Positions 31,379 through 39,166 of a stretch of 64,000 nucleotides of DNA are shown piece by piece. The notes under the pieces were generated by a model, which searched no databases, had not been told where the DNA came from, and saw nothing but the letters and a program-made list of their open reading frames with translations. Made by a program: the position numbers and the translations under genes. Source of the DNA: a phage; sequence record PZ154896.1; one strand, written 5' to 3'. Each line of letters opens with the position of its first letter. The first letter of the stretch is position 1.

Positions 31379-31581
31379 AAGGAATTTATATAATCAATAA
31401 GTTCTTGTTCTTTATCGTCGAAATCTTTACACAGTTCTTCGTATTCGTCGGTATTAAAAGGACCGCATTCATCGCAAACTTTTTCCAATTCACTATTTTT
31501 ATCCATAACTTCGTGAATAAGAGAAAACAGTCTGTCTTTTTGTTCTTTACTTAAACTCATAACCATGTCACCTTTAAGCAA
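31375..31581 (-). CDS. hypothetical acidic protein
   Basis: 68-aa ORF, ATGA overlap. Confidence 0.45.
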   Translation of the reverse strand: MLKGDMVMSLSKEQKDRLFSLIHEVMDKNSELEKVCDECGPFNTDEYEELCKDFDDKEQELIDYINSL

Positions 31582-31784
31582 TATTCTTCTACATGTTGTT
31601 TACGGCCTTTCTTATCGATAAAAGTATATTCAACGAATGTTCCGATGTAGTCTTTATCTACATCATGTGGACTATTAATTGGGCATTTGGTACGACAAAT
31701 GCGTTCCCATTGACGAATAATTACTGCCTTATTCTTTGGGTCATATGGATGTGGATAATGTATATTCATAATAATGGTTCCCAA
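31557..31784 (-). CDS. hypothetical protein
   Basis: 75-aa ORF. Confidence 0.45.
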   Translation of the reverse strand: MGTIIMNIHYPHPYDPKNKAVIIRQWERICRTKCPINSPHDVDKDYIGTFVEYTFIDKKGRKQHVEEYCLKVTWL

Positions 31785-32263
31785 TCAACAATCACAATTT
31801 CTAGTTTAGTGGAATACGTATCTAAAATCTCTTCGATGATATCCCAGTTTCCGCCACCGATACCTGCACCAATTCTTGGCATATAAATTACAGGCTTTGT
31901 TATCTTATTCTTTCCGAATTCATTTAATTCTATTATACAATTCATTAAAGCATAGTACTCAAAATTAGGTCCCGGCTCAAACTGCGTATAAAGATTAAAG
32001 CAATAAGCTTTATGGGTCTTAAAATATTTTTCATAAACCGAATAAGTCCCGAGTTTAGACTCGTCTCCGAATTCGGTTTGAAGTTTATCGGCTTCTAAAA
32101 TTTTTGGATAAGCCTTTGCTAATTGTCCTGCCACACCGGCGCCCATTGTATGAAAACAATTACACCCGTGAGCAATATTATTACCTTTAGAAAACAGGGC
32201 GACAATATCGCCCTTGATATAGTTTTTAATCACTTGCTGCAAGTCCTCTAGTATAAGAGTCAA
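31766..32263 (-). CDS. macro-domain-like protein (putative ADP-ribose binding/hydrolysing)
   Basis: 165 aa; GNNIAHGCNCFHTMGAGVAGQL and MPRIGAGIGGGNW resemble macro-domain glycine-rich motifs. Confidence 0.5.
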   Translation of the reverse strand: MTLILEDLQQVIKNYIKGDIVALFSKGNNIAHGCNCFHTMGAGVAGQLAKAYPKILEADKLQTEFGDESKLGTYSVYEKYFKTHKAYCFNLYTQFEPGPNFEYYALMNCIIELNEFGKNKITKPVIYMPRIGAGIGGGNWDIIEEILDTYSTKLEIVIVDWEPLL

Positions 32264-32573
32264 CTAGACGGTCCACCATAGAATTGCATGCTGCCTTATC
32301 TTTAGGTTCCGCCACCGAGCATTCTAATATTTGCCATTTTTTATAGTATCTTTTAATTAAGGTAGACGCCTTGAACCTACTAGACGCCCCATCTTTTTCT
32401 CCGTCTTTATACGCATATAACAATTTTTGTGAAAAATCTACTTTACACTCTTGACTTTTACCACAATAATCAGACGCCGTTCTGTTTGTATACTCCGTTA
32501 CATCAGTATATGTAGTATTAGCAAGAGCGCTAAATGAAACCAAGCCAACTATTAAAGCCAACATTTTGGTCAT
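32226..32573 (-). CDS. secreted Cys-containing protein
   Basis: 115 aa; signal peptide MLALIVGLVSFSALA; four Cys. Confidence 0.5.
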   Translation of the reverse strand: MTKMLALIVGLVSFSALANTTYTDVTEYTNRTASDYCGKSQECKVDFSQKLLYAYKDGEKDGASSRFKASTLIKRYYKKWQILECSVAEPKDKAACNSMVDRLVDSYTRGLAASD

Positions 32574-38692: not shown

Positions 38693-39166
38693 TTATAGAA
38701 GGGTAGTGAGCACCTTATATAATGATTTGCCCATTACATATTCCCATTGAGAAGGTTTAATTAAAGCGAATGCATCAAATTCAGGAATCTGTCGTCCGTC
38801 TGGGAACGTATGATAGGAATTACAAACACTGTTTCTGAATTGCTCGTGCTCTACAGGGATGGTATATAGGAACAGATGAATATTCTTATTGTCTGAGTAA
38901 TGATGTTCACCTAGGTCTTTCAGGAAGGCAGGGTCATATTGTGTAAACCCAGTTTCTTCTTCGCATTCACGAATAGCTGCTTCAATAGGAGATTCACCGG
39001 GCTCGACACGACCTTTAGGAATATCCCACCGATGAGCTAAAGAACCTTTAGGACGAGAACCAGTTACACGGCCCATGAATAACTCTTTATCTTTTGTCAT
39101 GAAGATAATACCAGCTGATAGCTCTTTCACTTTATTTTTCTTACTCATCATCTCAAATTCCTGCAT
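38693..39166 (-). CDS. nudE: Nudix hydrolase NudE
   Basis: 157 aa; Nudix box GRVEPGESPIEAAIRECEEETG; position matches T4 nudE (e.1). Confidence 0.85.
   Translation of the reverse strand: MQEFEMMSKKNKVKELSAGIIFMTKDKELFMGRVTGSRPKGSLAHRWDIPKGRVEPGESPIEAAIRECEEETGFTQYDPAFLKDLGEHHYSDNKNIHLFLYTIPVEHEQFRNSVCNSYHTFPDGRQIPEFDAFALIKPSQWEYVMGKSLYKVLTTLL

Follow-up and report, generated by a model that had tools for sequence, protein, structure and literature searches.

Extent and setting of the tk.4 gene

The 64,000-nucleotide stretch of phage DNA analysed here (the window; record PZ154896.1) carries on its minus strand, at 31766-32233, a gene for a stand-alone macrodomain. This gene is the Mosigvirus orthologue of T4 tk.4, renamed adfM (anti-DarT factor, macrodomain), and the window belongs to a Mosigvirus-type T-even phage: over 25 kb around the gene it is 97-98% identical to Mosigvirus genomes (for example, Shigella phage phi25-307). 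The local gene order (thymidine kinase, three small open reading frames (ORFs), the macrodomain gene, vs, the SLT-like vs.1 and RegB) is that of T4 (tk, tk.1-3, tk.4, vs, vs.1, regB) and likewise that of Mosigvirus RefSeq records. The product aligns end to end and without gaps with T4 Tk.4 (NP_049723; 155 amino acids (aa)), with which it shares 131 of 155 residues (85%), those invariant in the family included. The two proteins are equally long, and both genes lie between tk.3 on the downstream and vs on the upstream side. Relative to T4 tk.4, 62% of synonymous sites differ against 8% of non-synonymous sites; the resulting ratio of non-synonymous to synonymous divergence (dN/dS) of 0.065 therefore indicates strong purifying selection. 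The 498-nucleotide (nt) interval 31766-32263 is matched over its full length in 376 phage records. With tblastn, ~2,800 of the 50,697 phage records searched had a homologue; among them are Felixounaviruses and Straboviridae infecting many different hosts.

A first-pass annotation, made from the sequence alone, had placed a macro-domain-like protein at 31766-32263. The minus strand of this interval is indeed a single open frame without interruption, whose translation contains both of the glycine-rich motifs named there (GNNIAHGCNCFHTMGAGVAGQL and IGAGIGGGNW), and the plus strand is stop-rich throughout. While the ORF stands, its start does not: the interval is the maximal ORF, counted from a TTG at 32263 (165 aa), and the gene probably starts instead at a GTG at 32233, giving 155 codons and a TGA stop. 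RefSeq records of Mosigvirus relatives annotate a 468-nt coding sequence (CDS) at exactly the position of the GTG-started gene, T4 Tk.4 has this length, homologues have a median length of 154 aa (n = 120), and a Shine-Dalgarno-like AGAGGA (32244-32249, minus strand; read from the sequence) lies 10 nt 5' of the GTG, within the end of vs. On the grounds of these homologue lengths, annotations and the position of the Shine-Dalgarno-like element, we rejected the TTG. The 30 nt that extend the frame back to it (32234-32263, minus strand) belong to the 3' end of vs, which is read in a different frame, and are probably not translated in the macrodomain protein. The start codon is GTG in the window gene but ATG in T4 tk.4.

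Both neighbours overlap the gene. Upstream, the end of vs (valyl-tRNA synthetase modifier; 32226-32573, minus strand) overlaps the start of tk.4 by 8 nt; downstream, the ATG of tk.3 (31767-31769; gene at 31557-31769, minus strand) overlaps the TGA of tk.4 (31766-31768) as ATGA, which suggests translational coupling, typical of the T-even early-gene block. The vs product, for which we found no Pfam match, has in both the window and T4 a hydrophobic, signal-peptide-like N-terminus ending in A-x-A (MTKMLALIVGLVSFSALA) and four conserved cysteines. These features are unexpected if, as is said of Vs, the protein binds a synthetase in the cytoplasm. T4 vs is conditionally required in minimal medium (HIDEN-SEQ preprint).

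The gene and its surroundings vary among relatives. Within Tequatrovirus, tk.4 is dimorphic, the protein of Yersinia phage PYps47T being just 58.7% identical to the window protein. The upstream region and the first ~13 tk.4 codons of PYps47T (L003 1471-1575) are nonetheless nucleotide-identical to T4, which suggests, from the sequences compared, that alleles have been exchanged, with recombination joining them at the gene's 5' end, as is often the case for anti-defence genes. In Karamvirus CC31 (L004 1085-2540), vs and tk.4 are separated by an additional ORF of 139 aa, and tk.1-tk.3 are missing, so that tk is the next gene after tk.4; this marks the small ORFs flanking tk.4 as a variable cassette region. 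A Felixounavirus homologue (Salmonella phage GEC_vB_BS, L005 2483-3268) has 261 aa, composed of the macrodomain and a C-terminal extension of ~100 residues, and this extension probably explains the 422-position profile of PHROG 335.

The 5' end of the coding region also contains a potential hairpin. At 20 nt inside tk.4, in codons 7-13 (32196-32214, minus strand), an 8-bp GC-rich stem, AGGGCGAT-ATT-GTCGCCCT (~-13 kcal/mol), is followed by a T-rich tract. The 26-nt stretch bearing it is nucleotide-identical in the window, T4 and PYps47T, despite high synonymous divergence elsewhere. However, an identical run of 26 nt against T4 is unexceptional, given a mean longest run of 22.7 under codon shuffling, phage CC31 does not retain the hairpin, and the number of terminator-like structures around tk.4 is within expectation. 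A role of the hairpin as a functional RNA element is thus not favoured.

Fold and active site of the macrodomain

The window protein is a 155-residue macrodomain of the ALC1-like class (TARG1/DarG/SCO6735/Poa1p). Its resemblance to macrodomains, proposed in the first-pass annotation from glycine-rich motifs, goes beyond chance. The Pfam Macro profile (PF01661) matched at 27.7 bits (gathering cut-off 22, E = 2.7e-6) over positions 2-117 of 118. A search of PDB sequences with the single sequence returned BT1257 as the best match (E = 1e-10), followed by Poa1p, SCO6735, TARG1 and DarG. No solved structure of any Tk.4-family protein was among these matches, and BT1257 is the closest solved structure by sequence. 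With a profile built from 69 homologues, the same proteins rose to E = 1e-16 through 1e-10, with TARG1 as the best match (E = 1.3e-16) and BT1257 also at about 1e-16.

Structure prediction placed the protein in the same class. An AlphaFold2 model, for which the input was the alignment of the 69 homologues, had a pLDDT (predicted local distance difference test) of 95.0 and a pTM (predicted template modelling score) of 0.90. When the model was compared with the PDB using Foldseek, the top 22 matches were all TARG1, Poa1p, BT1257, DarG, SCO6735 or designed proteins with the same fold, TARG1 being first. The fold is thus not an unrelated one, the outcome that would have spoken against the initial proposal, but the three-layer alpha/beta macro fold with its two glycine-rich ADP-ribose-binding loops. 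Because TARG1, Poa1p, BT1257, DarG and SCO6735 lead both the sequence and the Foldseek matches, we assign the protein to the ALC1-like class; its nearest neighbours in structure and in sequence set it apart from the MacroD, PARG and viral nsP3 classes.

Invariant residues in the family alignment include His22, Gly23, Asn25, Cys26, Gly33, Asn80, Tyr82, Gln84, Pro119, Gly122 and Gly124; Gln84 is present in 120/120 homologues and Asn25 in 119/119. The first substrate-binding loop (residues 22-36, HGCNCFHTMGAGVAG; 32126-32170, minus strand) is marked by invariant columns and includes Asn25 (codon 32159-32161), whose equivalents are Asn27 in SCO6735 and Asn23 in the AdfM of phage PhiKZ. Mutating either of these asparagines lowers activity (PMC9411070 for SCO6735, PMC13309987 for PhiKZ AdfM). 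Gln84 (codon 31982-31984, minus strand) ends the strand formed by residues 75-84 and occupies the position of Lys80 in DarG and Lys84 in TARG1. The second, diphosphate-binding glycine loop (residues 119-130, PRIGAGIGGGNW; 31844-31879, minus strand) has Gly126 at the position of TARG1 Asp125. One residue further on, position 127 is glycine in the window protein, as it is in 113/120 homologues, but lysine in T4 Tk.4 (L002 6923-7390; loop IGAGIGKGNW), and the T4 allele on which experiments have been done is thus atypical at this position of the substrate-binding loop.

The register that places Gln84 opposite the catalytic lysine was obtained with two profile methods. The HMMER profile alignment to TARG1 pairs Gln84 with the catalytic Lys84 and Gly126 with Asp125, and hhalign to Mycobacterium tuberculosis DarG (a sequence 100% identical to PDB 5M3I) sets Gln84 opposite Lys80 (N-L-Y-T-Q versus N-F-P-T-K) and Asn25 opposite Asn22. 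In the AlphaFold2 model, Gln84 closes strand 75-84 and the next helix begins at 93, an 8-residue spacing as in TARG1. Two other alignments disagreed: a seven-sequence MAFFT alignment put Tyr82 opposite the DarG/TARG1 lysine, and a gapless phmmer pairwise alignment to BT1257 was 6 residues out of register in the Gln84 strand. Both were overruled by the concordant profile alignments. We prefer the Gln84-Lys register because the profile alignments agree, the preceding threonine is conserved, the loop has 8 residues as in TARG1, and the register fits both the modelled strand and helix and the published equivalence of glutamine in BT1257/SCO6735 with lysine. The equivalence of Gln84 with SCO6735 Gln85 rests on BT1257 and on PMC9411070, a C-terminal sub-query having aligned with 5E3B in the second glycine loop only.

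Probable protection against DarTG2

The domain had been annotated for two decades when, in 2025, work on T4 assigned its function, and the gene is in this sense already known. An A1pp/macro domain was reported in tk.4 orthologues in 2006 (PMC1524935). In 2025, removal of AdfA together with AdfN (the NADAR protein gp30.3, which acts on guanine-ADP-ribose made by DarT1) was shown to leave T4 resistant to DarTG2, which predicted a further factor (PMC11825919). In a T4 transposon library grown on a DarTG2 host, tk.4 was the sole significant hit, a clean T4 tk.4 knockout was DarTG2-sensitive, and the gene was renamed adfM (bioRxiv 10.1101/2025.11.20.689424, November 2025). The authors described Tk.4 as structurally similar to DarG and went as far as to say that its removing ADP-ribose enzymatically from DNA 'seems likely'. 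Through orthology, this knockout phenotype lends support to the earlier proposal that the window protein reverses a host ADP-ribosylation defence, for which plating on DarTG-carrying hosts had been the suggested check.

We consider it likely that the window gene, as a tk.4/adfM orthologue, encodes a Gln-type macrodomain that counters DarT2 by removing ADP-ribose from phage DNA. In the proposed mechanism, the host toxin DarT2 would ADP-ribosylate thymidines in single-stranded phage DNA during infection and block replication. The two glycine loops of the phage macrodomain would enclose the ADP-ribose, and the protein would hydrolyse the bond between N3 of thymidine and the ribose, releasing ADP-ribose, restoring the DNA and permitting replication on DarTG2 hosts. 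Gln84, positioned by Asn25, would stand in for the lysine with which DarG and TARG1 catalyse the reaction; given this Gln-type active site, the chemistry is expected to be SCO6735-like, with substrate positioning and an activated water, rather than lysine-based. That the window protein strips ADP-ribose from DNA as an enzyme, and that Gln84 acts in this way, is our inference. A NUDIX hydrolase gene lies ~6.5 kb from tk.4, beside the lysozyme gene (38696-39166, minus strand; Pfam E = 5e-16), and matches in position T4 nudE/e.1, whose product is reported to hydrolyse ADP-ribose. Its product could dispose of ADP-ribose freed by the macrodomain.

Several points weigh against enzymatic removal of ADP-ribose from DNA. 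The literature that we searched reports no biochemistry on the Tk.4 family, the preprint going no further than 'seems likely', and the anti-DarTG2 phenotype comes from T4 only, from which the window protein differs at 15% of residues. The family is without the lysine that is essential in DarG and TARG1 and without the extended mobile loop credited with the high DNA activity of SCO6735, such that activity on DNA is not to be taken for granted. Furthermore, the catalytically dead mutants SCO6735 Q85A, DarG K80A and TARG1 K84A inhibit DarT in vitro, SCO6735 most strongly (PMC9411070). The dead SCO6735 does so by binding, and protection may thus be enzymatic only in part.

This last result and the absent lysine would both fit a protein that neutralizes DarT2 mainly without catalysis, by binding or inhibiting the toxin or by shielding its ADP-ribosylated product. 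We regard such a mode of action as improbable, since Asn25, Gln84 and both glycine loops do not vary among 120 homologues, the most distant at about 38% identity, a pattern typical of an enzyme, and the C-terminal domain with which DarG binds DarT is absent. By comparison with SCO6735, the missing lysine would also be no sign of inactivity, because SCO6735 likewise has glutamine there and hydrolyses DarT-made thymidine-ADP-ribose on DNA, faster than DarG or TARG1 do (PMC9411070).

Database labels suggest a different activity. RefSeq names T4 Tk.4 'phosphatase; contains A1pp phosphatase motif', and PHROG 335 is also named 'phosphatase'. The window protein might accordingly act like yeast Poa1p, an ADP-ribose-1''-phosphate phosphatase, and dispose of some small soluble derivative of ADP-ribose, for instance one left over from tRNA splicing or RNA repair. 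In the Poa1p comparison, Thr29 falls opposite Ser30 and His22 opposite His23, the residue mutated by the depositors of 6lfs (H23A), and comparative genomics from the Aravind laboratory holds that phage macrodomains mostly target soluble ADP-ribose derivatives (PMC9503650). However, the label stems from the name of the SMART A1pp domain and not from an assay (PMC1524935), the same histidine is found in TARG1 and BT1257 and is hence not diagnostic, and the one phenotype known for the T4 orthologue concerns DarTG2 specifically, which is a system that modifies DNA. A Poa1p-like role is thus very unlikely in our estimation.

The targets could also be ADP-ribosylated proteins or RNA, marked either by the phage enzymes Alt, ModA and ModB or by host defences such as the mRNA ADP-ribosyltransferase CmdT. 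For the products of Alt/Mod-type enzymes, whose processing the first-pass annotation had offered as a second possibility, we found no support. Alt and Mod enzymes modify arginine, and we know of no ALC1-like macrodomain that cleaves the arginine-ADP-ribose linkage, both of which count against this alternative. SCO6735 and TARG1 do act additionally on Glu/Asp-ADP-ribose on proteins and on uracil-ADP-ribose on RNA, making a wider substrate range plausible for the class (PMC9411070, PMC13036486). For host defences, the modification of adenine by CmdT is described as irreversible (PMC13036486), and CmdTAC still defends robustly against T-even phages carrying tk.4 (PMC11618068). Nor was a tk.4 mutant reported to be defective in hosts without DarTG2 (10.1101/2025.11.20.689424). 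We give a primary role on protein or RNA only a slim chance, and retain removal of ADP-ribose from phage DNA as the likely function of the window protein.

Comparison with known macrodomains

Among known macrodomains, DarG offers itself first for comparison. It was the sole match of the window protein both in PADLOC (E = 3.9e-8, positions 4-145 of 329) and in NCBIfam (NF048014, positions 4-146 of 338), the latter at 29.3 bits against an equivalog cut-off of 250. DarG (M. tuberculosis 5M3I, Thermus aquaticus 5M31/5M3E) has Lys80 in an FPTK motif where Tk.4 has Gln84, and the 155-aa window protein has no counterpart of its C-terminal DarT-binding domain. No darT lies beside the window gene, the neighbours being vs and tk.3, as in T4. 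The window protein may thus be likened to the DarG macrodomain in its presumed action, but it is not a DarG.

Two eukaryotic members of the class differ from Tk.4 at the active site or in their substrate. Human TARG1/OARD1 (4J5R and others), which also cleaves thymidine-ADP-ribose (PMC9411070), has strand-loop-helix spacing around residue 84 identical to that of Tk.4, but its catalytic dyad of Lys84 and Asp125 is replaced by Gln84 and Gly126. Yeast Poa1p (6LFQ), of which the C-terminal half aligns weakly with the window protein, is a small-molecule phosphatase without a known role in DNA de-ADP-ribosylation.

A second phage protein has independently been named AdfM. PhiKZ gp104, of the chimalliviruses, is also a stand-alone macrodomain that counters DarTG2; it removes DarT2-made ADP-ribose from DNA in vitro, and its N23A mutant has reduced activity (PMC13309987). 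In contrast to the Gln-type Tk.4, gp104 is of the DarG-like Lys type, with an FPTKDNW motif, and is imported into the phage nucleus. Because gp104 carries the DarG-type FPTK motif, T4 Tk.4 and PhiKZ gp104 appear from their sequences to be of different macrodomain lineages, and their shared name would denote convergent function rather than orthology.

The active site of Tk.4 resembles that of SCO6735 (Streptomyces coelicolor, PDB 5E3B) and BT1257 (Bacteroides, 2FG1/2AFC), which are 54% identical to one another (PMC9411070) and about 27% identical to Tk.4. All three have glutamine at the lysine position, the conserved asparagine and a second loop of the form G-x-G-[LI]-[AG]-G-G-x-W. In SCO6735, Q85A is dead and N27S nearly dead, and the mechanism proposed is water-mediated, with the glutamine positioning the distal ribose (PMC9411070). 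The mobile loop, on the other hand, is about 5-6 residues longer in the SCO6735/BT1257 subclass than in Tk.4, and about 5 longer than in DarG/TARG1 (PMC9411070); when aligned to the Tk.4 profile, BT1257 has 6 residues inserted. The Tk.4 loop (Q84-Y93) instead equals that of TARG1 (K84-Y93) in length. Furthermore, the invariant Gly23 of Tk.4 is Val25 in SCO6735, and proteins of the SCO6735/BT1257 type are cellular and DNA-damage-inducible, whereas Tk.4 is phage-encoded. Because Tk.4 shares the glutamine and asparagine with SCO6735/BT1257 but has a short mobile loop and differs at Gly23, its family constitutes a Gln-type, short-loop subgroup of its own.

The invariant glutamine of the T-even AdfM family, in place of the catalytic lysine of DarG, is a useful addition to what was known of the gene, and points to SCO6735-like chemistry. 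It matters for the design of mutants (Q84A and N25A, with no lysine mutant to be made), for inhibitors and for the transfer of annotation. With AdfA, AdfN (NADAR, guanine) and AdfM (macrodomain, thymine), T-even phages stack erasers of DNA ADP-ribosylation. More tentatively, and with the odds against it in our view, the Tk.4-type AdfM, a short-loop ALC1-like macrodomain of the Gln type, may answer DarT2 by a mechanism of its own, the third such solution, with an origin separate from those of DarG and of the Lys-type AdfM of PhiKZ. It would hydrolyse thymidine-ADP-ribose without a catalytic lysine and perhaps also erase uracil-ADP-ribose on RNA or Glu/Asp-ADP-ribose on proteins, as SCO6735 and TARG1 do. 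If so, the protein found in ~2,800 phage genomes would be a broad-spectrum eraser and not a dedicated anti-DarT2 factor.
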